In this document: positions 3,565 through 63,879 of the stretch, piece after piece
Layout: each line of letters starts with the position of its first letter
Numbering within the stretch: the stretch's first letter is position 1
Origin: Enterobacter phage EC152
Length of the DNA: 64,000 nucleotides
Sequence record: PP681140.1
Direction: 5' to 3' (one strand)
Made by a program: the position numbers and the translations under genes
Notes under the pieces: model-generated
Database searches by the model: none
Seen by the model: the letters and a program-made list of their open reading frames with translations, nothing else
What the model was told of the DNA's origin: nothing

Positions 3565-3660
3565 TTGTTGACTCTTAATAGATGGGGCTTTAAGATAAGC
3601 CCTATCAAGTAAGAGAAATAACCCGGCAATAATGCCAAACCAAACAAAAGGTAAATTATC

Positions 3661-9602: not shown

Positions 9603-9678
9603 CAGATTAAAAGGCGCTTGCAATGGTGAGCGCTTTTTGATAAATTAATGTCTCACCAAACAAATGAGGTAAACGGCA

Positions 9679-10002: not shown

Positions 10003-10051
10003 ACCCACCGGGGGCGCTAGTCGCCCCGCTATCATATGAGAGGTAAACAAA

Positions 10052-10417
10052 ATGGATCTTAAGAAAATCAATCTTTTAGCCCTGAAAAAGGGTGATATGC
10101 TGTTTCGTGGGTCTTTGTGTGAAGTCCTGGAAATATCAGCGCCGTTTATGCGTGGCTATGGTTATGATAACCATTATTACAAGGCCGAAACGGTAGCGAT
10201 CAAATGTCAAGCCGTATATGATTACGATGTTAACTATTCAAAAGAAAGCGGCAAGCCATTAACGCCCCGTGAATATGTTTTTGATTATCCGATTGAATCA
10301 CAAGTGATGATCGTTACATCTGGCGAAACGGTCACCGTGACAAGCGCTACCGGGAATTTTGACGATAAAACAGGTCATTATCTGTTACCCGGTCAAACAA
10401 TTAATGTTATTGAGTGA
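10052..10417 (+). CDS. Hypothetical early protein, 121 aa
   Basis: Hairpin 10008-10027 followed by Shine-Dalgarno GAGAGGTAAAC. Confidence 0.75.
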   Translation: MDLKKINLLALKKGDMLFRGSLCEVLEISAPFMRGYGYDNHYYKAETVAIKCQAVYDYDVNYSKESGKPLTPREYVFDYPIESQVMIVTSGETVTVTSATGNFDDKTGHYLLPGQTINVIE

Positions 10418-10423
10418 TGACAA

Positions 10424-10687
10424 GTGATTAACCTTGTTTATCATGTGAGCAAAACCAACATTAGCCGGGCTATCTGCCTGGCTTGCTTGTTTGCTGTTTT
10501 GTCAAATGTTTTTTACGGTTGGCTGGCCTGCCTTGTGTTAAGTGACGCAACCGCCCAGACAGTTAACACCATGATCGATGTTTTGCAGCTTGCTTTATAT
10601 TGTGGTGTAAAGCTGTACAGATTTAAACGCCTGGACCGTTACGATCTACCTTTCATCATTGGCGGATCACTGGCTATTATGTTGTAA
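10424..10687 (+). CDS. Hydrophobic membrane protein, 87 aa, probable GTG start
   Basis: Strongly hydrophobic ORF directly after the previous stop. Confidence 0.5.
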   Translation: MINLVYHVSKTNISRAICLACLFAVLSNVFYGWLACLVLSDATAQTVNTMIDVLQLALYCGVKLYRFKRLDRYDLPFIIGGSLAIML

Positions 10688-10690
10688 GCT

Positions 10691-10714
10691 AGGCCGGGAT
10701 TATTCCCGGCTTTT
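10691..10714 (+). terminator. Rho-independent terminator ending the plus-strand early block (AGGCCGGGATTATTCCCGGCTTTT)
   Basis: GC hairpin followed by a T-run. Confidence 0.7.
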
Positions 10715-10786
10715 GCATATCATAACCCACACCAAACCACAACCCAAAATCTTTACCCGCTTTTATGTTGGTTGCAATATCGCAAC

Positions 10787-10801
10787 TGAGAATTATTCTC
10801 A
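10787..10801. promoter_or_regulatory. Perfect 15-bp palindrome TGAGAAT-T-ATTCTCA (operator-like)
   Basis: Same half-site as at 254-272 and 11716-11745. Confidence 0.5.
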
Positions 10802-10817
10802 CCAATCCCGTTGGCAA

Positions 10818-10848
10818 TTATGCAATAAAGTGAATTTAAAGAGATCTC
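10818..10848 (+). promoter_or_regulatory. Copy 4 of the TATGCAATAAAGTGAATTT motif, followed by the palindrome AAAGAGATCTCTTTAAAG (10839-10856); copy 5 lies at 10995-11020
   Basis: See copy 1. Confidence 0.45.
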
Positions 10849-47094: not shown

Positions 47095-47582
47095 TCGTTA
47101 CTCAAATACTCGTCCAAATACCGGACATCCAGTTCCCATTTCTCTCGCTTACTCCGTTCATGATACAAGGCAAACGCCTCGCTCACGTACTTCTCTGCAA
47201 CCTGTCTGGAGACACCGTTCACCTTCATGAAGTGACGAAGGGCGATTTCTCCTCTTCCACGAATACCAGCAAGGCCGATATGTTTTACTTCATGACATGA
47301 CGGGCAGAGCGCGATAAGACCTTTCAGCGTGATCTTACCATTACCAAAGTCCCAGATTTCGTGACACTCAACAGGGTGTTTGTTCCCTTTACCACCACAA
47401 ATCTCACATCTATAATTGGCTTTGGCATAGCATTTCTTTCTTACGACATCCCATTGGGATTTAGTGAGGTGAGAGCGTAAGTTAGTAAACCAAGCTGTTT
47501 TCGGAACCAGTTCAATCTCTAATTTCAATTCACCTCCACGAAGCTGCGATAACGACATCAATTGCTCTTTCCCAGCATTCAC
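47091..47582 (-). CDS. HNH/zinc-finger nuclease-like protein
   Basis: CEICGGKG...HPVECHEIW...CPSCHEVKH. Confidence 0.5.
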   Translation of the reverse strand: MNAGKEQLMSLSQLRGGELKLEIELVPKTAWFTNLRSHLTKSQWDVVRKKCYAKANYRCEICGGKGNKHPVECHEIWDFGNGKITLKGLIALCPSCHEVKHIGLAGIRGRGEIALRHFMKVNGVSRQVAEKYVSEAFALYHERSKREKWELDVRYLDEYLSND

Positions 47583-48075
47583 CGAGAAGGTTTAATCCTT
47601 GCCAGTTGGCAGGATCATCAATGCGTGTATCATATTCATTCATTTTAACTCCCCAGATTGCGTCATATGGGGATGCCTCTACAAAGCGACGACCAGCATC
47701 TCTGTGGGTCAGTGCTGCCTCAAGGATGGATCGATTCGCCTTCATTTTCAGAACAAGACCGTTTGTTACAATGTCCATCCGGTTTTCTTCCCAGACACTA
47801 TTGTCAAAGTCCCTGACTTTACGGCCCAGCGCTTTTGCCTCGTTTGGATTGTTAACCGTGGCAATACGTGCAGCAATCTCTTTATCATCAAAGAGCATTG
47901 CTTTCTGGAACATCATAAAGTGCTCAACCGTGAAGAATTCATAGCCACCACAACGGATAGGAATTACCTGACGGAAGTGGTTGCTGAACATATCACGGTA
48001 AGTGAAGAAGAAAACATGCTGATCAGTTATTCTCATTGGTTTTCCTCTTAGTGGAAAGTCTTTTTGGAAGGGCAT
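47530..48075 (-). CDS. NADAR (YbiA-like, DUF1768) domain protein
   Basis: FFFTYRDMFSNH...FFTVEHFMMFQKA...ARIATVNNPNEAKALGRKVRDFD..W...LLEASPYDAIWGV follows the NADAR consensus. Confidence 0.7.
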   Translation of the reverse strand: MPFQKDFPLRGKPMRITDQHVFFFTYRDMFSNHFRQVIPIRCGGYEFFTVEHFMMFQKAMLFDDKEIAARIATVNNPNEAKALGRKVRDFDNSVWEENRMDIVTNGLVLKMKANRSILEAALTHRDAGRRFVEASPYDAIWGVKMNEYDTRIDDPANWQGLNLLGECWERAIDVVIAASWR

Positions 48076-48242
48076 GAACCAGCACCTTCTTTCACAACTG
48101 ACTCTGTGCGATTACCATCGCTATAGATGCAGACTTTGGAGCTTCCATCAGTGTATTCATCCACCAAAGAAAGTGTGTTGACTGTGGCGAATGCCTGGGA
48201 AGAGAGCAGAACTGCTGCTAAAAGAATTGTTGTGCGGATCAT
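48048..48242 (-). CDS. Small secreted protein, 64 aa, with signal peptide
   Basis: MIRTTILLAAVLLSSQAFA. Confidence 0.5.
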   Translation of the reverse strand: MIRTTILLAAVLLSSQAFATVNTLSLVDEYTDGSSKVCIYSDGNRTESVVKEGAGSCPSKKTFH

Positions 48243-48305
48243 TTTGTATCTCCTTTGTTAAGTCGAGACCCGATGATAATACACCACCGGGCCTTTTGTC
48301 AACTC

Positions 48306-49196
48306 TTATTTACCTGCTGGCAGGGTAACGAATGGGGTCTGAGAACCGCTGGTCATGTAGACTGGGGTCACACCGTTCCACTTGTTAATCGCTTCCAGTT
48401 GCATAATCTCTGGGTTTTTGCGGAGAGAATCACCACGAAGTTGGATGGATTCTGCTTCACCTTTTGCCAGTGCTACTTTAGCATCGGCTTCACCCTGAGC
48501 TTGCAGTCGCTTAGATTCTGCTTCACCGCGCGCGGCCTCGATTGCCTTCTGAGCTTCAGCTTTTGTTTGCTGGATTTCGTTCTCACGCAGCAGAGCTTTC
48601 TGAGTAGCCTCGATCTTCGCATTGATGGACGCTGTTACCTGTGGTGGGTAGCCGAGGTCATCAGTGTAAGACAGTTTCACGATCACGATACCGATTGGAT
48701 CAAGTTTCGCTTTCAGGGTTTTCGTCACACGGTCCAGAAGCTGAGATTTACCATCACCAGCCAGCGTACCGATATCCATCGTACCCGCTTCCTTGATCAG
48801 TGCATCAGAGATGTTCTGACGAATGTTGACATCGGTGATTTCCTGAACACCTTTACGGTAAGTCTGGAAGATCTTGGTGACCTTAGAACGATCAACGTAG
48901 TATTCAACACCAATCTTCGCAGTAACCGTCATAGAATCTTTGGTCTGGAAGTTGAAAGGTTGTTCGTAGTTGTTCAACTGGTTGAATGTTGGGAACTGAT
49001 AAATCTCTTCGTTCCACGTCAGCCAGTATTTACCAACACCGACTTCCTGTTGCTGGACTCCCTTCTCATCGCCGTACAGGTCAACCTTGACACCAACATA
49101 ACCTGCCGGGACGGTTGCACGTTCACAACCTGTCAGGCCAATTGCACCCAAAGCGATCAGGCCAGCGAAAACTACACGTTTGATATTCTTAAGCAT
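48306..49196 (-). CDS. SPFH/Band-7 (prohibitin/HflKC-like) lipoprotein
   Basis: Lipobox LTGC, an SPFH core, and a coiled-coil EAQKAIEAARGEAESKRLQAQGEADAKVALAKGEAE typical of the SPFH C-terminal region. Confidence 0.7.
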   Translation of the reverse strand: MLKNIKRVVFAGLIALGAIGLTGCERATVPAGYVGVKVDLYGDEKGVQQQEVGVGKYWLTWNEEIYQFPTFNQLNNYEQPFNFQTKDSMTVTAKIGVEYYVDRSKVTKIFQTYRKGVQEITDVNIRQNISDALIKEAGTMDIGTLAGDGKSQLLDRVTKTLKAKLDPIGIVIVKLSYTDDLGYPPQVTASINAKIEATQKALLRENEIQQTKAEAQKAIEAARGEAESKRLQAQGEADAKVALAKGEAESIQLRGDSLRKNPEIMQLEAINKWNGVTPVYMTSGSQTPFVTLPAGK

Positions 49197-49336
49197 TGGT
49201 TTGGTTCTCCTCTTTGATTTTGTATTCAGTTTTTACAGTTTGGTCAACGTGATCGTCAACAATTTTCGCTACCAAGGCAGCGGCAGACTTATTTCTGGAC
49301 CGGGCCAGATGCTGCAACTTTTCCCAGGTAGATGCT

Positions 49337-49540
49337 TTAAGATTTAGTAGCATCTAAGCCTCCACGTTTAAAGAACACTTTACGTACCCAATACCACACA
49401 ACCGCCGGGGCTGAGAACACCAGGGCGAAACCGCCGATAACGCCCAGTGTATCTTTAGCAGAAACTAAAGTTGGTACTGCGAACCCGAAGATGAAGCAAA
49501 GGAAGACAAATAAGCCAACACCGTTCAGGTAATATTTCAT
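49337..49540 (-). CDS. Membrane protein, 67 aa
   Basis: Two transmembrane segments. Confidence 0.5.
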   Translation of the reverse strand: MKYYLNGVGLFVFLCFIFGFAVPTLVSAKDTLGVIGGFALVFSAPAVVWYWVRKVFFKRGGLDATKS

Positions 49541-49899
49541 TATTCGGAACCTTCTTCGCCGTCATCAGCTTCAGTTTGTGCAACATTCGGAGTACCACGA
49601 CCAAACAGGATATCAGCCTCGGTCATCTGCTCAACCTGTTCTTCCAGGTCTTTACGCTTTTTGCCAGCCTGATACTGACGGTCAAACTCTGCTGCTACCA
49701 GCGTTTTGATGAACTTAGGATCGTAGTTGTGGCTGTCCTTCTCTACAGCAACGATATCCTTGAACTGGCTCGCTGCATCTTTCTGGGCGATCTTCGCATC
49801 AACACCTTCCTGAATTACTTTCTTCAGGCGATTACGCTCTGCTGGATCAGAAGGCAGGGGGTTTTTCAGTTCTACTTTGATTTTAGGCATACGTGGCAT
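49540..49899 (-). CDS. Hypothetical protein, 119 aa
   Basis: ORF on the minus strand. Confidence 0.55.
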   Translation of the reverse strand: MPRMPKIKVELKNPLPSDPAERNRLKKVIQEGVDAKIAQKDAASQFKDIVAVEKDSHNYDPKFIKTLVAAEFDRQYQAGKKRKDLEEQVEQMTEADILFGRGTPNVAQTEADDGEEGSE

Positions 49900-49967
49900 A
49901 GTTTTGTTTCTCCTCTGTTTGTTTAGTCTGTTCAGTATAGCTACTTAATTATTTTTGTCAAACACTT

Positions 49968-50189
49968 TTAATCAATGCCGACAATCTTTCCACCGGAGCG
50001 CTCAATCTGAGCTACATATGCTGCGAGCGTACCCAGAGTACATTCGTAGGCATATTTCTTAGCACCGCCCCAGCGACGTTTCATGGTGAATCTGATCAGG
50101 TATCGTGTGCTTGGTCCACGACTAACAATTCTGATTCCAAGGCGATTAGCGATTTCGATAATCTCAGGATAATCAATAATTTCTTCCAC
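49968..50189 (-). CDS. Hypothetical protein, 73 aa
   Basis: ORF on the minus strand. Confidence 0.45.
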   Translation of the reverse strand: MEEIIDYPEIIEIANRLGIRIVSRGPSTRYLIRFTMKRRWGGAKKYAYECTLGTLAAYVAQIERSGGKIVGID

Positions 50190-50242
50190 TGCGTTCTCCT
50201 CTTTGTCTTGATGGGGTCATTATACAGACCCCTTATTCATTG

Positions 50243-50932
50243 TCAAGCGATAATTTTCGGACTTTCGAAAGTGCTTGGTTTCATGATCTTGCCATTTCTA
50301 TCGAAGAAGACAAGGCGTGAACCTTTGACGTCTGGGTTTCGGATATCAATTACCTCACGGAAACCAACACCTTCATAACGACCATTAGAACGGTCTTCGA
50401 TTGCTTTACATTCTTGACGTAAAGCTTCGGCTTTCTCCTTACCGGGCCACAAGGCAAGAATATCCTGCACATATGGGTATTTGGTATCGTTTGAATGTAA
50501 CACCTGACGCATGTTGTAGTCAAGATTAATATCAAGACGATAGCACAGCGCAGTCACCAGCTTCAGCACATAAACAGGATCTTGCATGTTACCATAGAGG
50601 TTGTGCTCCAGATCACCAATCGTAAACGTCAATGTTGGAGAAGGGGTACAGGCCTCACGTAAATACTCAGGGCTTTTCAACTGGCAAGCATATGAGGCCA
50701 CAACAAAGAGATCGCAGGCAGCGTCAACAGTTTCAATGCGGTCTCCAACACGGAGTGCATCAACGAGTTCGTTGAATTCTTCACGAATAAAACCCCATTG
50801 CAGACTGAAAGGTGTTGCCACATTATTGCGAGCACGATATGCAACATGGTTCCATTCAATCACATGCTCCGCGTATGCGTACAGATCTGATGGTTTTGTC
50901 ATCGCTAAAAGTGTTTCGTAAACCTTACTCAT
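50243..50932 (-). CDS. Possible MazG-like all-alpha NTP pyrophosphohydrolase, 229 aa
   Basis: IREEFNELVDAL...TVDAACDLFVVASYA resembles the MazG EExxE...D core; weak. Confidence 0.3.
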   Translation of the reverse strand: MSKVYETLLAMTKPSDLYAYAEHVIEWNHVAYRARNNVATPFSLQWGFIREEFNELVDALRVGDRIETVDAACDLFVVASYACQLKSPEYLREACTPSPTLTFTIGDLEHNLYGNMQDPVYVLKLVTALCYRLDINLDYNMRQVLHSNDTKYPYVQDILALWPGKEKAEALRQECKAIEDRSNGRYEGVGFREVIDIRNPDVKGSRLVFFDRNGKIMKPSTFESPKIIA

Positions 50933-50941
50933 TGATTCTCC

Positions 50942-51313
50942 TTAATTAATTACATCTGTCGCGTGATCACCTTCCGGTTGGTCACGAATAATTCTTAATG
51001 GCAAAAGAGCACCGTTCTTAGCTACGAACAGGCATTTGTCGCCATATGTCCCATTCTTGTACCAAGAATAAGACGTATTCACCTTGTAGGCCATACCGTC
51101 GAATTGACAGGTCATGGTGTTCCACAACGGTTTGGTAAGGGCCAGCGTTACCAGGCCCAACACAACAGCCCAAATCAACAGCAGACGTTTCACCTTTCCC
51201 TGAGTCCAGTCAATGAAATCGTCAAGCTTGTCTTTCCGGAAACGGTAGGCGATATAAATACCGCCCCCGGTTACCAGTGTTGCCCCAAAGAGCGCCAGCC
51301 AATACCAGATCAT
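50942..51313 (-). CDS. Membrane protein, 123 aa
   Basis: Two N-terminal transmembrane segments. Confidence 0.55.
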   Translation of the reverse strand: MIWYWLALFGATLVTGGGIYIAYRFRKDKLDDFIDWTQGKVKRLLLIWAVVLGLVTLALTKPLWNTMTCQFDGMAYKVNTSYSWYKNGTYGDKCLFVAKNGALLPLRIIRDQPEGDHATDVIN

Positions 51314-51777
51314 TATGCACGTACCTCTGTTACCTTCACGGTTGCTTCACCGCGAAGTTGGATGTTGGAACCATCGTCGAGAGTGAGAATGATATCATCA
51401 CCACTGATTTTGTGGCCTTTAACAATATAATCTTTTCCCCACATCTCTACCTTATCACCCATCACGACATTTTTGGCCTTGTAATCACCCGGCAGGCGAT
51501 CTTCATCGCTAACCGCTTCATAAAGGTCGCTAAACGCTTGTGGGGACATTGCTGTGAACTGGTCACCCACTTTCACAATGTAATCACCGGGAAACGCCTG
51601 AACACCGTTAACATCCATATTCCGGATATCCCGTGTATGGATCTCAGAATCTTTCCATACCCCGGTCTCGACCCACTTGGTAACTTGACCAACCCCGGTG
51701 CTAGACCCGTTGAATACGTGTGCTTCAACCTCTTGAGGTTTGCGACTATAGAATCCCATTAGTATACTGGCTCCCAT
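51313..51777 (-). CDS. Hypothetical protein, 154 aa
   Basis: ORF on the minus strand. Confidence 0.55.
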   Translation of the reverse strand: MGASILMGFYSRKPQEVEAHVFNGSSTGVGQVTKWVETGVWKDSEIHTRDIRNMDVNGVQAFPGDYIVKVGDQFTAMSPQAFSDLYEAVSDEDRLPGDYKAKNVVMGDKVEMWGKDYIVKGHKISGDDIILTLDDGSNIQLRGEATVKVTEVRA

Positions 51778-53057
51778 GTTAATGTGTTAAGTTCACGTAC
51801 ACTCTGTCCCACTGGGAACTGAGGTACACCATCATCAGTGCGAGACTGGAATGTAAAGTTGATGAAACCACCAACCAACAGCAACATCTTCGCCTGAGAA
51901 CGTTCTGCATGTGTGCCTTTCATTTTACAGTTGAATCGTGTTCCGTCCTGTTCTTCACAAAGCAGAACACCCTCGCCATTTTTGTCCTCTATAGAATCAA
52001 GGACCTTGGCCTCACCATCCTGGAACAGCTTCCATTTCTGGAGATCAGAGGATCGTTGACCGAACTCGTAGACACCTTTGAAGTTACGGATGATCGACCC
52101 TTCAAATCCTTGCTCCATGTATTTACCGATGGACCACTTAACTTCTCTCTCAGAAGTGACAACAATACCAGCGATAACTTTTACCAATGGAACGTTGAGT
52201 TCGCACTCGACAGCATCAGTAACAGCCAGAAGGTCTTGGTGTCTGGTCTTATCGTGTTCATAAGAATACCAAGGACTCTGTGCATTCACCGGAATGTCAA
52301 AGATATGATACTCAAGGTCAAGACTCGAATAACCACTGTAGCGATCAACGTCCTTCACAGGTTTATACGTTGAAACAGCCCACACGTTGCCGTCAAAGTC
52401 TTTCCAGAGATGTTCACCTGCTTCAACAGCCTTGTTGTAACGCTTGATATCAGCTTGATAATCCTTTTCGATCTCGGATTCAATCTGTTCAGGTGTACGC
52501 CACTTCTTAGCAAGAGCAACAATCTTCTGTAGACTCAGGCCATGAATATACAGTTCACCATCGAACTTGTCAAACCCTGAATGCTCTGCAAGTTCCTTAA
52601 CTTGCTGTAGCAGAGCGCCCTGCACAGGGTATGTCTTGTTTCCACGACTATTAAACACCGGGATGCCATTCTTGTCAAGAGTTACAAGAGCACGAACACC
52701 GTCAAGCTTTGGCTGCACATAGGCAGGATAGACGATAGCTGAAGATCGCTTGATCGCATCGTGTGCCAACATAGGAGAAAAGTTTTCTTCCTCTACGAGC
52801 TTGCTTGTATCGTCACGATATCCAAGACGAACCTGTTTCTCCCACTTAGAAACAGCCTCAACCCATGCCTGCTGTTCTGCGGTGGTTTCATTAGATCGCC
52901 CAACATTCTTAGGTTCACAGGTTGTAACCTTCTGTTGCTTCTTACCACCGACCTTACCAAACTCCACTACGACCTGATCACCTACAATAAACACCTTCCA
53001 ACACTGGAAAGAACCGTCTTTGTTCAGTGCGAAAAGTGTTGAGTTAACTTGCTGCAT
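51759..53057 (-). CDS. ATP-dependent DNA ligase
   Basis: Adenylation motif I KLDGVR and the downstream nucleotidyltransferase/OB architecture. Confidence 0.8.
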   Translation of the reverse strand: MQQVNSTLFALNKDGSFQCWKVFIVGDQVVVEFGKVGGKKQQKVTTCEPKNVGRSNETTAEQQAWVEAVSKWEKQVRLGYRDDTSKLVEEENFSPMLAHDAIKRSSAIVYPAYVQPKLDGVRALVTLDKNGIPVFNSRGNKTYPVQGALLQQVKELAEHSGFDKFDGELYIHGLSLQKIVALAKKWRTPEQIESEIEKDYQADIKRYNKAVEAGEHLWKDFDGNVWAVSTYKPVKDVDRYSGYSSLDLEYHIFDIPVNAQSPWYSYEHDKTRHQDLLAVTDAVECELNVPLVKVIAGIVVTSEREVKWSIGKYMEQGFEGSIIRNFKGVYEFGQRSSDLQKWKLFQDGEAKVLDSIEDKNGEGVLLCEEQDGTRFNCKMKGTHAERSQAKMLLLVGGFINFTFQSRTDDGVPQFPVGQSVRELNTLTWEPVY

Positions 53058-53833
53058 TATTTCTCCTTTTTCTGTAAAGGCGTTTTTCCTTCAAGGTGGT
53101 CTTCAACCATATTGATTAAACCGGGGTTGCTGAAAGCATCAACAGCGCCTGCCCGATAAACGATAACACCCGCATCTTCATACATCAACTGCTCATCATA
53201 GCGAACACCTGGGTTAACAACCACCACCTTTGTTCCTCGCATGACAGCAGGGAAAAGTTCCCAGTTGAAGTTGATCACTGTGTTTGAACAACCAACCACA
53301 ATAACCATGTCTTCAGATGTCAAGCTATCTAAGGTCGAATATAGCTGCCCGTATGCAGGCGCAGTTTCACCAAAAAAGATAACGTTAGGCTTGCACCATC
53401 CATAATCATCTGGGTCAATCTGCTCATAGCCAACATCAATGATCTTTTTAGGTGATCCAGCCTCAGTCTCAATCACCAACTCTTTCAGATAACCATGAAT
53501 ATAAAGCGTATCTTCTTTAGGAACGCCTGCACGTTCCAACAGGTCATCAACGTTAGTTGTCAAGTTAATAACCTGGTTAGGATAGTTTTTATACCACTCT
53601 GCCACACGCATATGTGCAGCGTTAGGATGCACAGTTTGCAGTTCTGCACGACGCTTGTTATAAAAAGTATGCGTCTTGTGGTAAAAATTACCACGGAAGG
53701 CATGGATGTTGCATACCTCTTCAAGGTCATACTCATCCCACAAGGCCTTCCCGGAGTTCGTATCGGTACGGAATGTACGGATTCCGCTTTCAGCAGAAAA
53801 TCCAGCACCGCTAATGACATATAAGCGCCTCAA
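53057..53833 (-). CDS. Sir2-family NAD-dependent deacylase (CobB-like) lacking the zinc ribbon
   Basis: GAGFSAESGIRTFR, TTNVDDLLERAG, catalytic-His motif YIHGYL and VIFFGE match CobB along the length; the CxxC pairs are absent. Confidence 0.8.
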   Translation of the reverse strand: MRRLYVISGAGFSAESGIRTFRTDTNSGKALWDEYDLEEVCNIHAFRGNFYHKTHTFYNKRRAELQTVHPNAAHMRVAEWYKNYPNQVINLTTNVDDLLERAGVPKEDTLYIHGYLKELVIETEAGSPKKIIDVGYEQIDPDDYGWCKPNVIFFGETAPAYGQLYSTLDSLTSEDMVIVVGCSNTVINFNWELFPAVMRGTKVVVVNPGVRYDEQLMYEDAGVIVYRAGAVDAFSNPGLINMVEDHLEGKTPLQKKEK

Positions 53834-53843
53834 ATATTTCTCC

Positions 53844-54269
53844 TTATTGCAATTTCAATGAGTTACGCAGACGACGCTCTTGAGCATCACGAGTTTCCTG
53901 CGGAACGCTGTGAATAGAATCATTGCCATGACGGTTCTCGACAACCAGGCTAATGACGCGATACCCATACTCCTCAGCCAACTTAAGGTATGGTTTCAGT
54001 TCTTTTTCACTGGTTGATGTGTTGGACACAATGATCTTACTGGAATTGCCAAAACCATTGAAGTCATTCTCCATCCACTCGCGAACCTGTTCTTGACACC
54101 ATGCATGTGCCGCCTGAATATTCTCAGGTTTCCAGTCATAAACACCATCTTCCGTATAGTGGAATTTATCTGCTTCACATACAGGCCACAAACCCTCTGC
54201 GAGCATGTCTGCAACCGTAGACTTACCAGCACCAGACACACCACGCAGGATAATAAGAGTCTTTTCCAT
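53844..54269 (-). CDS. Polynucleotide 5'-kinase (P-loop, kinase-only)
   Basis: LRGVSGAGKST Walker A, about 140 aa; resembles the T4 Pnk kinase domain. Confidence 0.65.
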   Translation of the reverse strand: MEKTLIILRGVSGAGKSTVADMLAEGLWPVCEADKFHYTEDGVYDWKPENIQAAHAWCQEQVREWMENDFNGFGNSSKIIVSNTSTSEKELKPYLKLAEEYGYRVISLVVENRHGNDSIHSVPQETRDAQERRLRNSLKLQ

Positions 54270-54278
54270 CTCTTCTCC

Positions 54279-54623
54279 TCAGTAATTGTTTCTCAGAATG
54301 CTCACACCATACCGAGCCATGCTCTCTTTTGCAAGCATAAATTTGTGTCCTGCCGATGGATTAGATGTATGCACGAACAGTTTAATCGGACCAAACAACA
54401 TCTTACCAAAGACAATCTTTTCCTCAAGATTAAGGAAGCACCAATACCCGTCATGGTCTGATTCCTCACCAAGGTCGTTATCGAAGTGCCACTCGGTGAC
54501 ACGACGATATGGTTTACTACGATCTTCGAGGAACTCCATAAACTCTTCAGAGTTCTTTAACCACAAGGCATCCGGATAACCATAATCTTTTGGGTCGCGA
54601 AGGTCATCCAACCAGATTATCAT
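54279..54623 (-). CDS. Hypothetical protein, 114 aa
   Basis: ORF on the minus strand. Confidence 0.55.
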   Translation of the reverse strand: MIIWLDDLRDPKDYGYPDALWLKNSEEFMEFLEDRSKPYRRVTEWHFDNDLGEESDHDGYWCFLNLEEKIVFGKMLFGPIKLFVHTSNPSAGHKFMLAKESMARYGVSILRNNY

Positions 54624-54856
54624 TTCTCACCCCTTTCCTTGTGAGGGTAGATTGAACACCCAACACCGTAGCAGCAGATCATGGCAATGATGAATAGAAT
54701 ACCGCCAAAAATTACTTGACCACCAAGCGTTTCGATAACCCAATTCACAAAAATTATCAGTGCAGACAACAATACAAACACAGATAACCCAATGATAAAT
54801 CTAGTAATTACCGAAACAGCACGGTCGCATTTGTCCTTAATACTCATAAGTTTCAT
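54620..54856 (-). CDS. Membrane protein, 78 aa
   Basis: Two transmembrane segments. Confidence 0.5.
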   Translation of the reverse strand: MKLMSIKDKCDRAVSVITRFIIGLSVFVLLSALIIFVNWVIETLGGQVIFGGILFIIAMICCYGVGCSIYPHKERGEK

Positions 54857-55773
54857 TTGCGGTCCTCGAAATATTTTTCAATGATCATACGCCGATACTG
54901 AGAGTCCTTAGCGGCCCACTCTTCTTTTTCGTAAGCCCAGCGAAGCCAGTCAAGGAGTTCGTAGAACTCTTCGTCAATACGCTGTTTGGCATTCTGAGGA
55001 TTATCCCAGATCATGTCCCACTTGTTCTGGCTACCCCGCATCAAGAACTTCTTCGCCAGGTAGTGTGGTGACTTGATTTTCAGGAGTAATTCTCCGGTAT
55101 CAACATCACGTACAACAAAACCTTCATGGTGTACTTCCTTGGATGCTTTCACAACATCACTGAAGATCATGTTATCCCATCCAGCACGTTTCCATCCATA
55201 ACGGTTTGCAACCTTATCAAGGTCCCATTCAGGAAGCATACCACCACTAAGGTGGACACGGCAACCGATCAGGTATGCACCAGCCTCTTCTGCGACGATA
55301 TGTGGATCACTTTCATCACAGATTTCGAAAATCAGTGTACATGGTCCAGCACCCTTGACAAAATAATCCAGAAGATCAGGCGACATTGCACCAACGATCT
55401 TTTCTTTTGCCATATGAGCGAATTCAGAATCGAGTGTCCCCGTTGTTGAGACAATGACCTCACCATTGTAAACACTCATAGCAGCCATAAAGCCATTAAC
55501 TTTACGAGGTACACACACCAACTGGTCCCGTGGAACATCGGTGTTATTCTCGAAGCGGTTGAAAATCTTCGTGAAAGGCCAGATAACAACGTTGTCCTCT
55601 GCATCAACAACCATGCCACGGCACTCAAGAAGACGTGCGTCTGTGTGCCATAAGTTATCCCAGAACACATTGTTCTTATATTTCAGAACAGACAGACCCG
55701 CGAACGGGCCTTCGGTGTAAGTCTTTTTGGTTACCAGCTTTTTAGCTACCAGATCGTCTACGTTAAATTTCAT
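54853..55773 (-). CDS. RNA ligase-like nucleotidyltransferase
   Basis: Covalent nucleotidyltransferase features (motif I-like PRKVNGF) and size similar to Rnl2-type RNA ligases; sits beside pnk. Confidence 0.45.
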   Translation of the reverse strand: MKFNVDDLVAKKLVTKKTYTEGPFAGLSVLKYKNNVFWDNLWHTDARLLECRGMVVDAEDNVVIWPFTKIFNRFENNTDVPRDQLVCVPRKVNGFMAAMSVYNGEVIVSTTGTLDSEFAHMAKEKIVGAMSPDLLDYFVKGAGPCTLIFEICDESDPHIVAEEAGAYLIGCRVHLSGGMLPEWDLDKVANRYGWKRAGWDNMIFSDVVKASKEVHHEGFVVRDVDTGELLLKIKSPHYLAKKFLMRGSQNKWDMIWDNPQNAKQRIDEEFYELLDWLRWAYEKEEWAAKDSQYRRMIIEKYFEDRK

Positions 55774-55977
55774 TTTTGTCCCCTACTTTTTCTTGAAGAA
55801 TGTCTGGATTATACATGCCTCACGGCGGCTGTCAATACTTTGTTCTGGCATTGATGCCGCTGTTACAAGTTTAGCAACATCGCGCTTGTCGATGGAGCCA
55901 TACGCACCAGAATCCATCATGAAGAAAATCTTGTCTTGGGTAATTTTATGAACTTTCATAAGTCCTCTCTTAGGTAA

Positions 55978-56373
55978 TTAACTACGCTTTTCGTAACCTT
56001 CTGCCTGATAGTAGGTAGTATTGTGCGGTGTTTCAATGCTAAAACTGATCTGGCAGAGTTCTTGGGCTAAGAATGTACCAAGTTCAACAGCCATGTCAAG
56101 TATTTCGTGCTCAGGACGCTCAAAGCGCGGGTACTGCATGATCCGGGCAGTCATACCATCCTCAACACCACCTGTGTACACGTAGGTACACGGGGAGATC
56201 TGCACACAAGCGCCTTTCATCACCCACTGGCGACACAGGTTTTCAGCCTGATTGTAGTTGCCAGCGATGTGAATTGTTGCATAGAAAGACTTAGAAGTCT
56301 TCTTTGGTAAAAAATTACGAGGCTTGTTGTGCATATTATTCTCCATGATCAACAGTGTAAATTGGTTTAGCAA
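55978..56373 (-). CDS. Hypothetical protein, 131 aa
   Basis: ORF on the minus strand. Confidence 0.5.
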   Translation of the reverse strand: MLNQFTLLIMENNMHNKPRNFLPKKTSKSFYATIHIAGNYNQAENLCRQWVMKGACVQISPCTYVYTGGVEDGMTARIMQYPRFERPEHEILDMAVELGTFLAQELCQISFSIETPHNTTYYQAEGYEKRS

Positions 56374-56935
56374 GGCACATCATAACAGCTTCACGCATCG
56401 TTAAAGGACGACCATGCACATCCCAACCCACATCCAAAATACGCCCACCAGGGGCCGTATAGGAGCCGTGGCTGTGACCGTGCAGCATTACCGACCCGTG
56501 GTGAGCTTTATTCCACGAGGCAAAAGGATAGTGGGACATACATACCTTCACCTTTTCTTTTCCGGTGCTGAACTCAATTTCCTTATAGTCCACAACTTCA
56601 TGACCAAACTCACGGAAGATACGCTTGGTCTGATGGTTGTCATGATTACCACCAACCAGAATGATCTTCCCATTGATACGACTCAGGATATCACGAACTT
56701 TTGGCTCAACATGCTTACCATAGGCAATAACGAAATCCCCCAGGTGTGCCACCACATCGTCAGGCTTGACGTGTTTGTTCCACGTCTTAACCATGTCGTC
56801 ATTCATTTTTACAACTGAGGCTGAGTCTTCTTTCGGGCCGTACAGGTTCTTACGGAACTTATCACACGATGGGAAACCAAGAATGTTGGTGTGCCACCAG
56901 TGGGTGTCTGATGTAACGTGATCAATTTGAATCAT
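56336..56935 (-). CDS. Calcineurin-like metallophosphoesterase
   Basis: Motifs DTHWWH, GDFV(I)..., GGNHDNH, HGHSH. Confidence 0.75.
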   Translation of the reverse strand: MIQIDHVTSDTHWWHTNILGFPSCDKFRKNLYGPKEDSASVVKMNDDMVKTWNKHVKPDDVVAHLGDFVIAYGKHVEPKVRDILSRINGKIILVGGNHDNHQTKRIFREFGHEVVDYKEIEFSTGKEKVKVCMSHYPFASWNKAHHGSVMLHGHSHGSYTAPGGRILDVGWDVHGRPLTMREAVMMCLAKPIYTVDHGE

Positions 56936-57216
56936 TTCTTTTTCCTTTTTGTTGTTTTCTTATACAAACCTAACGCGGCATTCTCCTTGGCGCAAGTGAG
57001 AACTCTTTCGATCTTGCGACGATCAACCTCCGGCATATTAAGTTCCCACCAACCCATCCAGTAGATCTGGTCTTTGGTGAGTGGTTCTGCTTCAGGATCT
57101 GCCTCTTGATCATGAAGGCGCTGTATAGCTTCCTTGATCACACCAACATCGGTTGTGAACACAAACGCTTCTGTATCGAACTTGTCCTTAACGGGCTTCT
57201 TAATATCTTTTTTCAT
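56932..57216 (-). CDS. Hypothetical protein, 94 aa
   Basis: ATGA coupling. Confidence 0.5.
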   Translation of the reverse strand: MKKDIKKPVKDKFDTEAFVFTTDVGVIKEAIQRLHDQEADPEAEPLTKDQIYWMGWWELNMPEVDRRKIERVLTCAKENAALGLYKKTTKRKKK

Positions 57217-57992: not shown

Positions 57993-58061
57993 TCCTGTTC
58001 ATTCATACTGCGGTTCATCAAGTGAACGACTCTTTGATAGTAGAATATATAGATCATACTA

Positions 58062-58188
58062 AAAGATCTTGTTTTTAGATCTTATGTTTTATTGTTTTTA
58101 TAAAAGAGTATTGTTTTATTTATTTTATATAGTATTTATTTCTGTTATCAATTTGAGACTAGGCTTAGTATCAATTTGAGTATAGGCT
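58062..58188. promoter_or_regulatory. AT-rich divergent control region: palindrome AAGATCT-n7-AGATCTT (58062-58082) and two 20-bp iteron-like direct repeats TATCAATTTGAG(AC/TA)TAGGCT (58146-58165, 58169-58188)
   Basis: Read directly; lies immediately upstream of the HTH gene. Confidence 0.5.
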
Positions 58189-58201
58189 ATGGAGGAGAGA
58201 C

Positions 58202-58520: not shown

Positions 58521-59333
58521 ATGAGTATTGAATTACGTTTGAACAAACTGGTTGTTCCTGTAGACCACTTCACCTTTAAGGGTGGTGAGGAACAGGTCAA
58601 AATTGACCTAAAACACGCACCAAAAGGCGGTATTGGTTTCGTAGATATCACTGCCAAAATCAAAAATTCAACTGATGTCATGGCACTGGCTATGTTGGTG
58701 GATGCGTGTTCCCGTTTGGAAGGATTGCATAACCACGCAGAGTTCACCCTGCACCTTCCATACATCCCGTATGCACGTCAAGACCGTGTAATGAACCCAG
58801 GTGAAGCGTTATCTATTAAGGTTTTCGCAAACATTGTCAACTCGCTTGGTTTCGACACGGTTATCGTTGATGACCCGCACAGCGATGTCTCTGCTGCACT
58901 GCTCAATAACGTCCGTATCCGTGGTCAGGATGTTCTTATTTCCGAGATGAAAGATCTTGGCAACTCCACATTGCATAGCAACTCTTTGGTTGTGGTAGCA
59001 CCTGATGCGGGTGCTCGCAAGAAAGCCCATAAGGTTGCTGACCGATTCAGTCTTCCTCTTGTTGAGGCTGGTAAAGTACGTGATTTGCAGACCAACGAAA
59101 TCACTGGTACTGCGGTGTTCGGAGATGTTGAAGGTAAAGTGTGTATGATTGTTGATGATATCTGCGACGGTGGTCGTACATTCATCGCCCTTGCACAGGC
59201 CCTGAAAGAAAACGGTGCGAAACGTGTTATCCTGTACGTTACTCACGGTATCTTTTCTTTCGGTAAACAGGTCATCCTCGATGGTGGGGTTGATGAAATC
59301 TATGCGTATCATGACTGGACGGAGAATTTTTAA
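58521..59333 (+). CDS. Ribose-phosphate pyrophosphokinase (Prs) family enzyme; likely ADP-ribose pyrophosphate synthetase (Adps) of a NAD-reconstitution pathway
   Basis: HLPYIPYARQDR and MIVDDICDGGRTFIALAQALKENGAKRVILYVTHGIFS align with the Prs catalytic and PRPP-binding loops; N-terminal domain shortened. Confidence 0.8.
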   Translation: MSIELRLNKLVVPVDHFTFKGGEEQVKIDLKHAPKGGIGFVDITAKIKNSTDVMALAMLVDACSRLEGLHNHAEFTLHLPYIPYARQDRVMNPGEALSIKVFANIVNSLGFDTVIVDDPHSDVSAALLNNVRIRGQDVLISEMKDLGNSTLHSNSLVVVAPDAGARKKAHKVADRFSLPLVEAGKVRDLQTNEITGTAVFGDVEGKVCMIVDDICDGGRTFIALAQALKENGAKRVILYVTHGIFSFGKQVILDGGVDEIYAYHDWTENF

Positions 59334-59866
59334 TGACTGAATCAACAAGTTTTATTTTTGTTGTCGATACAGATTCCTATGCTGGTAATTTTGAGCGTGA
59401 CATGTGCGCTCATATCACCGGGCAGATTGGTGAATGCGGTGTTGGTGCAGAGTACCGCACCGATATTGAAGACCTAAAAGAAGACCATTACGATTTTGAT
59501 CTCGAAAAAATCTGTGAGTGGTTAGAAAATAATGTTCTCCAGGTTCCAGATGAACACGCCTGCTATCGCCCATGTGCGATTTACCCAACACCGGGGCGTA
59601 CAAACAACGGCGGTGGTGTGCATTCTGATGTGACCGCAAATAATCCATTCAAGTGGCCTGCATACGAAAGTGTAGCTATCTACATCCGTGAAGAACCACC
59701 TGAAGATGTGGTACGTTTCATGGTCATCCGTGCTAACACTTTCTATATTCGTGCGACCAAGTGGTCACCAGCCAAAGAAATCAAGGTAAAAGGTTGCAGA
59801 TTGGTTAAAGAAACGACAACTGTGAAAACAGAATCGAAATCTTTAGACTTTTCACTTGACATCTAA
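59333..59866 (+). CDS. Hypothetical protein, 177 aa, translationally coupled between the Prs-like and NAMPT-like genes
   Basis: TAATG overlap with the upstream gene; no recognisable motif (no Nudix box, no HxGH). Confidence 0.6.
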   Translation: MTESTSFIFVVDTDSYAGNFERDMCAHITGQIGECGVGAEYRTDIEDLKEDHYDFDLEKICEWLENNVLQVPDEHACYRPCAIYPTPGRTNNGGGVHSDVTANNPFKWPAYESVAIYIREEPPEDVVRFMVIRANTFYIRATKWSPAKEIKVKGCRLVKETTTVKTESKSLDFSLDI

Positions 59867-59919
59867 ACCGAACGGGGTGTAGAATCACCCCATCAAAACA
59901 CACAAAGGAGAAACAAAAC

Positions 59920-61611
59920 ATGCTGCATAAAGAAAGTCCACTTTGCCACGCTGACTTTTATAAACCTTCACACATCTCCATGTACGATCAACGTTCTGAG
60001 ATTGTTCAGGACAACATGACACCACGTAATGCAAAGCACTTCATTCATTTCGCTGATAATGACCAGCGTGTGATGATGGCTGGCCTGCAAGGTTTCATTA
60101 AGTGGTTCCTGATCGATATGTTTAACGAAAACTTTTTCAAAATGAAAAAGGAAGACGCTCTGGCCCAGTACAAAGAAATTTGTGATCTGAGCATCGGTCC
60201 GAACATGGTTGAAACATGGGGCTTTGAAAAACTTCACGACCTCGGTTATCTGCCACTGGAAATCCGCTCAATTCCTGAAGGTACACTGTCTCCAGTACAG
60301 GTTCCGCTGTTCACCATCCAGAACACGCACCCTGATTTCTACTGGTTGCCGAACTTCCTGGAAAGTGTGATCTCAGCAGAAACCTGGAAAACTATCACAA
60401 CTGCAACTACATTCTGGCAGTATCGTAAGCTGTCTGAAGCGTGGGCCGCTGAAACCTGTGACAACAATCTGCACGTTCCGTTCCAGAACCACTGCTTCGC
60501 GTATCGCGGTGAATCAGGTACTCACGATGCAGCACAGAGCGAGTTTGGTCAACTGATCAACTCAATGGGTACAGATACCATTCCTGCGATTCTGTATGCA
60601 ATGCGTTATTACAACATGAAAGGTAAGTTCGTTGCTGGTTCTATCCCCGCATCAGAACACAGTGTTGCAACAACTAACATTGGCTTTATCGTCGGTCGCC
60701 TGAAAACTGAAAATCCTGATCTGTCTCTGGATGAACTGCGTTTCCTGGCTGAAGTTGAATTCCTGAAACGCTACATCACGGAAATTTTCCCGAAAGGTTT
60801 TGTTTCCTACGTAGCAGACAGCTATGACTTCTGGGCGATTATCACCCGCGCAGCGCTGATTCTAAAAGAAGATATCATGGCTCGTGACGGTCGTGTTGTG
60901 TTCCGTCCTGACTCAGGTATTCCAGAGCACATCATCGCTGGGTATTATATCCTGCCTGGTGAATATAAAACCTGCTCAGACGCATTTGATGAGCTTGAGC
61001 GATTTGAAGGTCCATATACTCCTGAAGTTGTGAATGTGCAGGGGACTTGGTTCACCATTGAATATAACGAGTTCTCAGATACAACGATTACTCGTTCAGA
61101 ACTTACAGACCATGAAGTCAAAGGTGCAATCCAGTGCCTGTGGGAAATCTTTGGTGGTGAAATTAACTCCAAAGGCTACAAAGTTCTGGACAGTCATGTT
61201 GGCCTGATCTACGGTGACTCTATCACTGTCGCTCGTGCAAAAGACATCTTTGAACGTCTGAAAGACCATGGTTTTGCATCCAGCAACATTGTGTTCGGGG
61301 TTGGTTCTTATACCACACAGTACACAACCCGTGATTCACTGGGTATGGCTGTGAAGGCAACTGGTGCGGTTATTGATGGTCAGCAGATCATGGTTGTCAA
61401 AGAACCGAAGACTGATCTCGGTAAGAAATCTGCAAAAGGTTTCCTGAAGGTTGTTCGTGATGAGAATGGTGAACTGAAACTGGTTGACAATTGTCAGCTT
61501 GAAGATGTACAGTCTGACGATAACGAACTGCGTCGTGTGTTCTACAATGGCAAACTGATTGTCGATGAAGACCTGACAACGATTCGTGAACGAGCAGCCG
61601 CTCAACTGTAA
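59920..61611 (+). CDS. Nicotinamide phosphoribosyltransferase (NAMPT/NadV) family enzyme; likely Namat of a NAD-reconstitution pathway
   Basis: 563 aa with typical NAMPT regions (…GYRGESGTHDAAQ…, …VFGVGSYT…); Shine-Dalgarno AAAGGAGAAAC. Confidence 0.8.
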   Translation: MLHKESPLCHADFYKPSHISMYDQRSEIVQDNMTPRNAKHFIHFADNDQRVMMAGLQGFIKWFLIDMFNENFFKMKKEDALAQYKEICDLSIGPNMVETWGFEKLHDLGYLPLEIRSIPEGTLSPVQVPLFTIQNTHPDFYWLPNFLESVISAETWKTITTATTFWQYRKLSEAWAAETCDNNLHVPFQNHCFAYRGESGTHDAAQSEFGQLINSMGTDTIPAILYAMRYYNMKGKFVAGSIPASEHSVATTNIGFIVGRLKTENPDLSLDELRFLAEVEFLKRYITEIFPKGFVSYVADSYDFWAIITRAALILKEDIMARDGRVVFRPDSGIPEHIIAGYYILPGEYKTCSDAFDELERFEGPYTPEVVNVQGTWFTIEYNEFSDTTITRSELTDHEVKGAIQCLWEIFGGEINSKGYKVLDSHVGLIYGDSITVARAKDIFERLKDHGFASSNIVFGVGSYTTQYTTRDSLGMAVKATGAVIDGQQIMVVKEPKTDLGKKSAKGFLKVVRDENGELKLVDNCQLEDVQSDDNELRRVFYNGKLIVDEDLTTIRERAAAQL

Positions 61612-62877: not shown

Positions 62878-62951
62878 GGTTCTGTAGCTTAGTTGGTTAG
62901 AGCGCTTCCCTCATAAGGAAGAGGTCGCAGGTTCAATCCCTGCCAGAACTA
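62878..62951 (+). tRNA. tRNA-Met (anticodon CAU)
   Basis: Manual cloverleaf: acceptor GGTTCTG/CAGAACT (G1-U72), D-arm GCTT-AGTTGGTTA-GAGC, anticodon stem CTTCC/GGAAG with loop CTCATAA, T-arm GCAGG-TTCAATC-CCTGC, discriminator A; CCA encoded at 62952-62954. Confidence 0.8.
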
Positions 62952-62968
62952 CCAAACGAGGAGAGACC

Positions 62969-63743: not shown

Positions 63744-63816
63744 GGGGTATTAACTCAGCGGTTAGAGTAGCGGCCTCTTAAGCCGAAGGTCGAAGGTTCG
63801 AATCCTTCATGCCCTA
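63744..63816 (+). tRNA. tRNA-Lys (anticodon CUU)
   Basis: Manual cloverleaf: acceptor GGGGTAT/ATGCCCT, D-arm ACTC-AGCGGTTA-GAGT, anticodon loop CTCTTAA, T-arm GAAGG-TTCGAAT-CCTTC, discriminator A, CCA encoded. Confidence 0.75.
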
Positions 63817-63879
63817 CCAAACAACGGGCTTTGGAAGTAATGCTTAATTACGGGTGAGGAATCCCCGGACCCCCAGCTT

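Follow-up and report, generated by a model that had tools for sequence, protein, structure and literature searches.

The subject of this study is a window of 64,000 nucleotides of Enterobacter phage EC152 (sequence record PP681140.1), in which the minus strand between 47.0 and 58.0 kb encodes a Pnk-type 5′-kinase, an Rnl1-type RNA ligase and a metallophosphoesterase, hereafter termed the trio, together with a sirtuin and a NADAR protein, and diverges from a plus-strand operon that is predicted to rebuild nicotinamide adenine dinucleotide (NAD+). We conclude that this region is probably the early/DNA-metabolism block of a Seunavirus phage, in which two counter-defence modules and one de-ADP-ribosylase lie among replication genes. 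The gene identities, the conservation of catalytic residues, the fold matches, the conserved neighbourhoods and the gene fusions on which this reading draws were all directly observed. An earlier note, made from the sequence alone, had described the same genes as one coherent counter-defence and repair island of about 10 kb. The open reading frame (ORF) map confirmed its observation, since each of the seven genes that it named was found as a minus-strand ORF at the coordinates given there. Its interpretation is partly supported and largely sound for the trio, the NAD-rebuilding operon and NADAR; the single island, however, is overstated, as the genes lie in a conserved early/replication block, which also encodes a core DNA ligase and an SPFH lipoprotein and holds about ten small ORFs unrelated to NAD or RNA.

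Comparison of phage neighbourhoods showed that the trio, rather than the sirtuin, is the conserved core of this gene cluster. The survey comprised 80 IMG/VR loci harboring relatives of the ligase (38-93% identity), whose ORFs were searched with iteratively built hidden Markov models (HMMs). Counted together, 90 ligase loci correspond to 64 clusters at 95% identity and to 42 clusters at 70% identity, and genes were regarded as nearby when they were located inside the 10 kb flank, the distance being below ~2.5 kb in most loci. The kinase was found near the ligase in 38 of the 42 clusters and the phosphoesterase in 37, and at least ten gene orders preserve the grouping, among them M-R-K, K-R-M and R-M-K (M, metallophosphoesterase; R, RNA ligase; K, kinase). 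Sirtuin, the cyclic-phosphate-processing protein cREC and MazG are limited to 3-4 of these clusters. Moreover, 11 ORFs of metagenomic phages with a length of 338-432 amino acids consist of an N-terminal kinase fused to a C-terminal Rnl1-type ligase. The grouping is likewise present in the cultured Pseudomonas phage JG004 (Pakpunavirus), for which an independent annotation lists phosphoesterase, RNA ligase, ATPase, Prs and Nampt. The persistence of the adjacency across many gene orders and the fusion of kinase and ligase argue strongly, on comparative grounds, that the three predicted enzymes work together as a functional unit, in line with their treatment as one pathway in the earlier note. 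The fusions were observed in loci L109, L111, L122, L124-L126, L130 (for example positions 9527-10825), L133, L134, L136 and L140, and the HMM search did not detect the aq_1665-type phosphoesterase in any of these 11 loci. In distant trio loci, genes of three further families recurred no more than 7 kb from the ligase, encoding Macro domain proteins in 16 loci, HD_4 phosphohydrolases in 15 and Rv2179c-like 3′-5′ exoribonucleases in 18; examples of such neighbours are located at L098 12508-12990, L084 8531-9001, L125 9541-10122 and L147 (JG004) 3491-4051.

Domains of the window proteins were assigned with Pfam, PHROG and NCBIfam, and models of defence systems were taken from PADLOC. The profile searches proposed in the earlier note returned the expected families for NADAR, sirtuin, kinase and phosphoesterase, whereas the ligase (54853-55773, minus strand) gave no direct Pfam match, and a direct sequence search of the PDB with this protein gave nothing useful. 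Its identity emerged instead from PHROG 562 (phrog_562, expectation value (E) 6e-65), from a profile of 24 homologues that matches T4 Rnl1 (2c5u) across the nucleotidyltransferase domain with E 1.7e-11, and from an AlphaFold2 (AF2) model with a predicted local distance difference test (pLDDT) score of 92. In a Foldseek search the model, which adopts the Rnl1 fold, matched T4 Rnl1 best among PDB entries (E 6e-13); the top matches are 2c5u, 9do4 and 5tt6, followed by fungal Trl1-LIG domains. The residues R52, K69, F71, K91-x-N93-G94, E150, E217-G218 and K232-x-K234 are invariant and align with the T4 Rnl1 motifs, including the motif I lysine in K-x-(D/N)-G and the residues of motifs III, IV and V. 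Thus, the gene is predicted from sequence and model to encode a short, ATP-dependent Rnl1/Trl1-like ligase of 306 amino acids. The profile match to T4 Rnl1 stops at residue 236 and is followed by ~70 helical residues, as compared with ~120 in T4.

The kinase gene (53844-54269, minus strand) encodes a stand-alone P-loop protein of 141 amino acids (Pfam AAA_33, E 9e-9). Since direct PDB sequence searches with the kinase and the phosphoesterase were uninformative, family profiles were required. The kinase profile (A3, 19 diverse homologues) matched Pnkp1 (4xrp, E 2e-8), T4 Pnk over its full length (1ly1, E 5e-8) and the kinase domain of CthPnkp (4gp7, E 6e-7), and polynucleotide 5′-kinases outscored nicotinamide-riboside kinase and metabolic kinases. 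The P-loop GxxGxGK(S/T) and D34, the equivalent of the general-base Asp35 of T4, are invariant. The fused HAD 3′-phosphatase is absent, as the ORF map and Pfam show the 141-residue protein to be the kinase domain alone. Assignment as a nicotinamide-riboside kinase was not favoured, as NRK1 matched with E 1.5e-4 compared with 2e-8 to 6e-7 for the polynucleotide kinases.

The third member of the trio is a small calcineurin-fold metallophosphoesterase of the aq_1665-like subfamily (56336-56935, minus strand; Pfam Metallophos, E 1.6e-7). The strongest match of its family profile (A4) is 1xm7, the uncharacterised Aquifex protein aq_1665 (E 1e-23), and the others are small YfcE/MJ0936-type enzymes. 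All calcineurin-like motifs (DxH, GD, GNH(D/E), H and GHxH) are found, and the metal ligands D10, H12, G66-D67, G96-N97-H98, H135 and G153-H154-x-H156 are invariant in 17 sequences. An enzyme of the lambda-phosphatase/Pnkp type was rejected, as profile A4 did not match either. Of the split Pnkp-like pathway proposed in the earlier note, the kinase is indeed Pnk-type and the ligase Rnl1/Trl1-like, whereas the phosphoesterase is not of the Pnkp type. In addition, a gene that the earlier note did not mention lies between the kinase and the ligase: the cREC ORF (54279-54623, minus strand) encodes a cyclic-phosphate-processing receiver-like protein of 114 amino acids, which matches PF20274 cREC_REC (E 4.7e-14; 53.3 bits against a cut-off of 27) and contains the N-terminal acidic pair as 'LDDLRD'.

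That the trio acts on RNA we infer from the Rnl1/Trl1 fold of the ligase, the Pnk type of the kinase and the cREC gene between them. The metallophosphoesterase, Rnl1-type ligase, cREC and Pnk-type kinase, encoded in this order and transcribed away from the intergenic region 57993-58201, would then form an RNA break-repair module. Cleavage of a tRNA by a host anticodon nuclease or another metal-independent RNase would leave 2′,3′-cyclic-phosphate and 5′-OH ends; the cyclic phosphate would be opened and removed by cREC and/or the phosphoesterase, the 5′-OH would be phosphorylated by the kinase, and the ligase, after adenylylation on Lys91, would seal the break. The module would act like T4 Pnkp and Rnl1, or like a bacterial Pnkp split over separate genes, and the sirtuin without zinc would be an optional add-on that performs either NAD-dependent removal of 2′-phosphates (Tpt1-like) or protein deacylation. 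How cREC and the phosphoesterase would divide their work, and which role the sirtuin would play, we infer only.

The sirtuin (53057-53833, minus strand; Pfam SIR2, E 5e-22) is the least certain component. In line with the earlier note it tracks CobB (1s5p, E 4e-19) and lacks the zinc-binding cysteines: in the alignment with CobB and in all 19 aligned members of its clade the cysteine cluster is absent, the lone Cys147 being Val or Ala in the others, and the structural model retains short strands in the region of the zinc module with moderate confidence. The same 19 sequences share invariant GAGxS..FR, YNxRR, TTNVDD, HG and FGE loop motifs and the catalytic His113, that is, the NAD-binding GAGxS..FR and (Q/T)N(I/V)D motifs and the catalytic His of class III sirtuins; Y58 and R61, the Tyr-x-x-Arg motif of the acyl pocket, are invariant as well and align with FYNARR of CobB. 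The top Foldseek matches of the model are CobB, Af1 and SIRT5, all of class III. A defence-type SIR2 NADase was rejected, as no PADLOC model of defence SIR2 matched at E 0.01 and neither ThsA, DSR nor SIR2-HerA occurred among the top 50 Foldseek PDB matches.

The comparative data show that the sirtuin gene behaves as a separable, cassette-like accessory gene, so that its place in one island with the trio could not be maintained: separation was observed in both directions. The nucleotide homology to Cronobacter phage GAP31 breaks at 53041-53841, being lost where the DNA ligase gene ends and restored with the kinase gene, and the syntenic slot of GAP31 (L001 12042-12292, the only slot examined there) contains an unrelated ORF of 74 amino acids, GAP31_168, in place of the sirtuin. 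Conversely, ~45 T5-like contigs encode a sirtuin with 49-68% identity and none of the trio within 10 kb. In T5 itself the sirtuin is T5.102, and two genes downstream T5.105 encodes a HAD_SAK_2 'Swiss-army-knife RNA repair' phosphatase (Pfam E 4e-20). HAD_SAK_2 lies at a distance of ~1 kb in 28 of 74 sirtuin loci, the trio or cREC is present in 24, and the remaining 22 show none of these; the sirtuin is therefore located beside predicted RNA-end-processing enzymes in 52 of the 74 loci, namely HAD_SAK_2 in T5-like phages and the trio or cREC in rV5-like phages. As side observations, the RefSeq name 'Sir2 (NAD-dependent deacetylase)' of T5.105 (L146 7589-8095) is wrong, the real sirtuin being T5.102, and the next two genes after T5.105 each contain a duplicated DUF7415. 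In addition, the phi92-like contig L030/L072 (IMGVR_UViG_2974717474_000001, 149.5 kb) carries its sirtuin ~30 kb from a cluster of kinase, cREC, ligase and phosphoesterase, so that the two are uncoupled inside a single genome as well.

These sirtuin neighbourhoods agree with those of Iyer et al. 2022 (Viruses 14:1977), who described the arrangement of the window for phages of the V5/Mydo type and proposed for such sirtuins a removal of RNA 2′-phosphates like that by KptA/Tpt1. The retained His and the anionic pocket formed by Tyr and Arg would be compatible with this activity, and an ordinary deacylation of the desuccinylase type would fit equally well, so that we regard the two as about equally likely. 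There is an appreciable, if lesser, chance that the protein is a conventional CobB/SIRT5-like lysine deacylase or a protein ADP-ribosyltransferase, which reprogrammes proteins of the host or the phage, whose position by the kinase is historical and which has no role in RNA repair. The best matches in sequence and structure to class III deacylases, the invariant catalytic His, FGE loop and desuccinylase-typical Tyr-x-x-Arg, the absence of the cassette from the GAP31 slot while the trio remains, and the T5-like phages with a sirtuin and neither ligase nor kinase nearby all point in this direction. However, the sirtuin recurs in three unrelated contexts beside predicted RNA-end phosphoesterases, as counted above, and the loss of the zinc module throughout the clade separates it from every characterised deacylase.

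The second counter-defence module is located on the plus strand, next to the block. Adps (ADP-ribose pyrophosphokinase, usually labelled 'Prs'; 58521-59333) and Namat (nicotinamide ADP-ribose transferase, usually labelled 'Nampt' or 'NAMPT'; 59920-61611; NF006629, E 4e-143) are 99% and 88% identical to the respective GAP31 proteins. In their supplementary tables, Osterman et al. 2024 class the orthologues of GAP31 and E. coli phage 4MG as Adps and as 'Adps-associated' Namat. According to this work, phage 'Prs + Nampt' pairs are Adps and Namat and convert ADP-ribose via ADP-ribose pyrophosphate (ADPR-PP) to NAD+, which defeats NAD-depleting defences; the activity was demonstrated for the homologues of Bas63 and SPbetaL1. 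With a Prs homologue of the Adps clade and a Nampt homologue of the Namat clade 0.6 kb apart, the operon 58521-61611 is, as judged from its sequence, NARP1. Thus, the NAD-reconstitution operon noted earlier is indeed present and belongs to a system whose counter-defence function is proven by experiment (Osterman et al. 2024). After depletion of NAD+ by a host NADase, Adps would convert ADP-ribose and ATP to ADPR-PP, and Namat would add nicotinamide to yield NAD+. Synthesis of nicotinamide mononucleotide (NMN) by 'Prs + NAMPT' without an NMN adenylyltransferase, similar to NARP2, was rejected on the basis of the listing by Osterman et al.; with Adps and Namat as the pair, the adenylyltransferase is therefore not needed. 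The Bas63 operon is described as two genes by Osterman et al. 2024, whereas here an extra ORF of 177 amino acids (59333-59866, plus strand), conserved in GAP31 and 4MG and without a match in Pfam or NCBIfam, lies between Adps and Namat; the GAP31 annotation likens it to gp332 of Bacillus phage G.

In 14-21 of the 42 clusters, Adps and/or Namat are encoded at most 10 kb from the trio, often directly adjacent and on the same strand. Compared with the overall frequency of NARP1 in phage genomes of 4.3%, this corresponds to an enrichment of ~8-fold or more beside the trio. The genes MPE-Rnl1-kinase-Adps-Namat (MPE, metallophosphoesterase) lie on one strand in JG004-like phages, while the two modules are divergent in the window. 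Both the grouping of the trio and its grouping with NARP1 are more than chance, and we did not find the latter linkage mentioned in Iyer et al. 2022 or Osterman et al. 2024.

The de-ADP-ribosylase of the block is a predicted NADAR (YbiA-type) ADP-ribosyl glycohydrolase (47530-48075, minus strand; Pfam PF08719, E 3e-34), the start of which is likely M14 at 48036, following the GAP31 annotation. It scores 119 bits with PF08719 (cut-off 35.1) and 121 bits with TIGR02464 (cut-off 73.7) and matches PDB entry 8bau with E 4e-15. The sequence 'fvEaSpyDaiWG' aligns with 8bau and with E. coli YbiA, and the Glu of the last strand and D-x-x-W-G are kept as in the YbiA type. With bas60_0111 of phage PaulScherrer the protein shares 38% identity over its full length (E 1e-35). 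Since Johannesman, Carlson and LeRoux 2024 demonstrated that DarT1 is neutralised, and phages are rescued from DarTG1, by NADAR-Bas60, this similarity lends support to the earlier suggestion that the phage protein would remove the ADP-ribose that DarT1-type toxins attach to guanine in phage DNA. It shares the NADAR superfamily with AdfN of T4, NADAR-Bas60 and NADAR-Bas32 (Johannesman et al. 2024). However, it is not an orthologue and is found in another genomic context, and the last-strand Glu together with the TIGR02464 match sets it, as a YbiA-type protein, apart from the His-type gp30.3 group. NADAR was found near the trio in only 2 of the 42 clusters, and grouping beyond chance was observed only within Seunavirus/Mydovirus-like phages. 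Including SPFH, this number is 2-3 of 42 clusters, which argues against membership of either gene in a common island.

Several observations weigh against the roles proposed here for the trio, the sirtuin and NADAR. The NADAR of T4 and YbiA of E. coli hydrolyse ADP-ribosyl-guanine in vitro and fail against DarT1 in vivo, and homology is therefore no guarantee of counter-defence. With 306 as compared with 374 amino acids, the ligase appears to be short of most of the C-terminal domain by which T4 Rnl1 is specific for tRNA, the phosphoesterase profile did not match the phosphatase domain of bacterial Pnkp, which is of the lambda-phosphatase type, and the sirtuin, which is missing from the GAP31 slot and is found in T5-like phages with no trio nearby, is no obligate member of the pathway. 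Furthermore, the neighbourhood counts take no account of the shared ancestry of the contigs, and a literature search for experimental work on the phage RNA-repair module (trio, cREC and sirtuin) found none.

A DNA substrate for the trio has to be considered as well. The kinase and the phosphoesterase could heal DNA nicks with 3′-phosphate and 5′-OH ends, produced by host nucleases or in the course of replication, for the adjacent DNA ligase, the Rnl1-like enzyme being incidental or acting on RNA-DNA junctions. T4 Pnk is known to act on DNA as well as RNA, and the phosphoesterase weakly matches PdeM, a family of the 'ligase-associated DNA damage response' (TIGR04123, E 1.5e-3, below the cut-off). 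Moreover, 16 of the 42 clusters encode an ATP-dependent DNA ligase no more than 10 kb from the trio, in several gene orders as its direct neighbour, which leaves room for a DNA substrate. However, the remaining 26 clusters have the trio without a nearby DNA ligase, and the 11 fusions join the kinase to an Rnl1-type ligase, never to a DNA ligase in this data set. As the ligase is closest in structure to ligases of tRNA repair and splicing and cREC is a domain for cyclic phosphates, that is, for RNA ends, we consider DNA-end healing improbable and favour RNA as the substrate.

The linkage of the trio and NARP1 might also reflect a shared biochemical pathway, beyond a shared anti-defence neighbourhood. 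Two versions of this idea, which likewise appears improbable to us, can be envisaged: the sirtuin without zinc, where it is present, may spend NAD+ on the removal of RNA 2′-phosphates, in a chemistry new to sirtuins and parallel to that of Tpt1, while NARP1 recycles ADP-ribose and nicotinamide, or the trio may act on NAD-derived nucleotides instead of tRNA, for example by adenylylating 5′-phosphorylated nicotinamide or ADP-ribose species. The weakest alternative, that unrelated early accessory and nucleotide genes were merely packed and inherited together in large virulent phages, draws on the full synteny of the block in Seunavirus and Mydovirus phages, on its content of DNA ligase, exonuclease, HNH, SPFH and ~10 uncharacterised ORFs, on the scarcity of NADAR and SPFH near the trio and on counts without phylogenetic correction, but is very unlikely given that the adjacency of the trio is preserved through at least ten rearrangements of gene order and in phages of different families, Pakpunavirus among them, that kinase-ligase fusions exist and that NARP1 is enriched beside the trio.

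The arrangement as such is already known, as it is annotated in close relatives, and its components and neighbourhood are covered by Iyer et al. 2022, Osterman et al. 2024 and Johannesman et al. 2024. The sirtuin, ligase, cREC, kinase, MazG and phosphoesterase of the sirtuin-centred RNA-repair neighbourhood of 'type 2' (phage V5/Mydo) of Iyer et al. 2022 are all found here. However, the published description centres on the sirtuin, whereas our counts place the trio at the core (37-38 of 42 clusters compared with 3-4 for sirtuin, cREC and MazG), and it mentions neither the loss of the zinc ligands nor the linkage to NARP1. Our additions are therefore modest and comprise the trio as the core, the kinase-ligase fusions, the frequent adjacency of trio and NARP1, and the uniform absence of zinc ligands from the sirtuin clade. 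With T4 Pnkp and Rnl1, which counter the anticodon nuclease PrrC, the phage shares a Pnk-type 5′-kinase with the conserved Asp and an Rnl1-fold ligase with conserved residues of motifs I, III, IV and V. The window kinase differs by the lack of the fused HAD 3′-phosphatase, a role presumably filled by the calcineurin-fold enzyme and/or cREC, and the ligase, of 306 amino acids, by an apparent loss of most of the C-terminal domain. The predicted set of kinase, metallophosphoesterase and ligase is also that of bacterial Pnkp (Clostridium thermocellum Pnkp/Hen1; Capnocytophaga Pnkp1-Rnl-Hen1), and the kinase profile matches both Pnkp kinase domains. In contrast to these systems, the activities are distributed over three genes instead of one polypeptide, Hen1 is absent, the phosphoesterase is aq_1665-like instead of lambda-phosphatase-like, and the ligase is of the Rnl1 type. 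If the inferred functions hold, countermeasures to tRNA cleavage, DNA ADP-ribosylation and NAD+ depletion, three widespread strategies of abortive infection, would be encoded within ~14 kb, which would help to predict host range and to select or engineer phages for therapy against Enterobacteriaceae. RNA 2′-phosphotransfer by a sirtuin would be an activity new to this family.

The ORF map shows that every gene between 47.0 and 58.0 kb is encoded on the minus strand. From 58.0 kb downwards, the order is three small ORFs, the metallophosphoesterase, an ORF of 131 amino acids, an ORF of 58 amino acids, the RNA-ligase-like gene, an ORF for a membrane protein of 78 amino acids, cREC, the P-loop kinase, the sirtuin, the ATP-dependent DNA ligase, two ORFs, the MazG-like gene, four small ORFs, the SPFH lipoprotein, a small secreted protein, NADAR and an HNH endonuclease. 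The intergenic region 57993-58201, which contains promoter-like sites on both strands, is the point of divergence between the minus-strand block and the NARP1 operon on the plus strand; the plus-strand unit starts with an ORF of 105 amino acids, followed by 'Prs', the 177-residue ORF and 'NAMPT'. Over the 10.5 kb compared, GAP31 shares 95% nucleotide identity across 84% and 4MG 85% across 89%. Both phages belong to the genus Seunavirus (rV5-like) of the Vequintavirinae, and their records show an identical gene order with the product names already annotated. Because core genes such as the DNA ligase lie inside the block and an exonuclease, endonuclease VII and the DNA polymerase exonuclease subunit just beyond it, the block is a conserved early/replication (DNA-metabolism) region rather than an island of recent acquisition.

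We regard the DNA ligase, the SPFH lipoprotein and several small ORFs as bystanders interleaved with the modules. The ATP-dependent DNA ligase (51759-53057, minus strand; DNA_ligase_A_M, E 1.2e-10; DNA_ligase_OB_2) serves replication and is a frequent neighbour of the trio; its Pfam adenylation-domain match begins at residue 95 and is preceded by an N-terminal extension of ~94 amino acids without family assignment. The SPFH/Band-7 lipoprotein (48306-49196, minus strand; Band_7, E 2e-21; phrog_200 'lipoprotein', E 9e-91) has the lipobox LTGC visible in its sequence, and its gene is near the ligase in only ~3 of the 42 clusters. The MazG-like nucleotide pyrophosphohydrolase (50243-50932, minus strand; PRA-PH, E 1.7e-4; phrog_671, E 5.5e-25), like cREC absent from the earlier note, was counted in the RNA-repair neighbourhood by Iyer et al. 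2022. Two further minus-strand ORFs separate the genes of the trio: the predicted membrane protein of 78 amino acids between cREC and the ligase (54620-54856), which shows weak 2TM-type Pfam matches and is kept in GAP31 and 4MG, and the conserved protein of 131 amino acids between the ligase and the phosphoesterase (55978-56373; phrog_4848, E 5e-51), which has no Pfam match.

Sigma-70-like promoter matches are enriched, with 43 seen compared with 25.3 ± 5.3 expected, which would be consistent with early genes. Two minus-strand sites, predicted by consensus match only, agree with both hexamers at 12 of 12 positions (TTGACA-16-TATAAT); one is located at 50219-50246, the other just upstream of the RNA ligase gene at 55808-55835. 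As the latter perfect consensus promoter falls within the 58-residue ORF (55783-55959), this ORF may not be a real gene.

Finally, we observed genes for tRNA-Met(CAT) at 62878-62954 and tRNA-Lys(CTT) at 63744-63819, the first ~1.3 kb downstream of Namat, and a tRNA-Met gene is found at the matching position in GAP31 and 4MG too. Phage tRNAs are another known route round tRNA-cleaving defences, and the position of these genes beside the RNA-repair and NARP1 genes could be meaningful.

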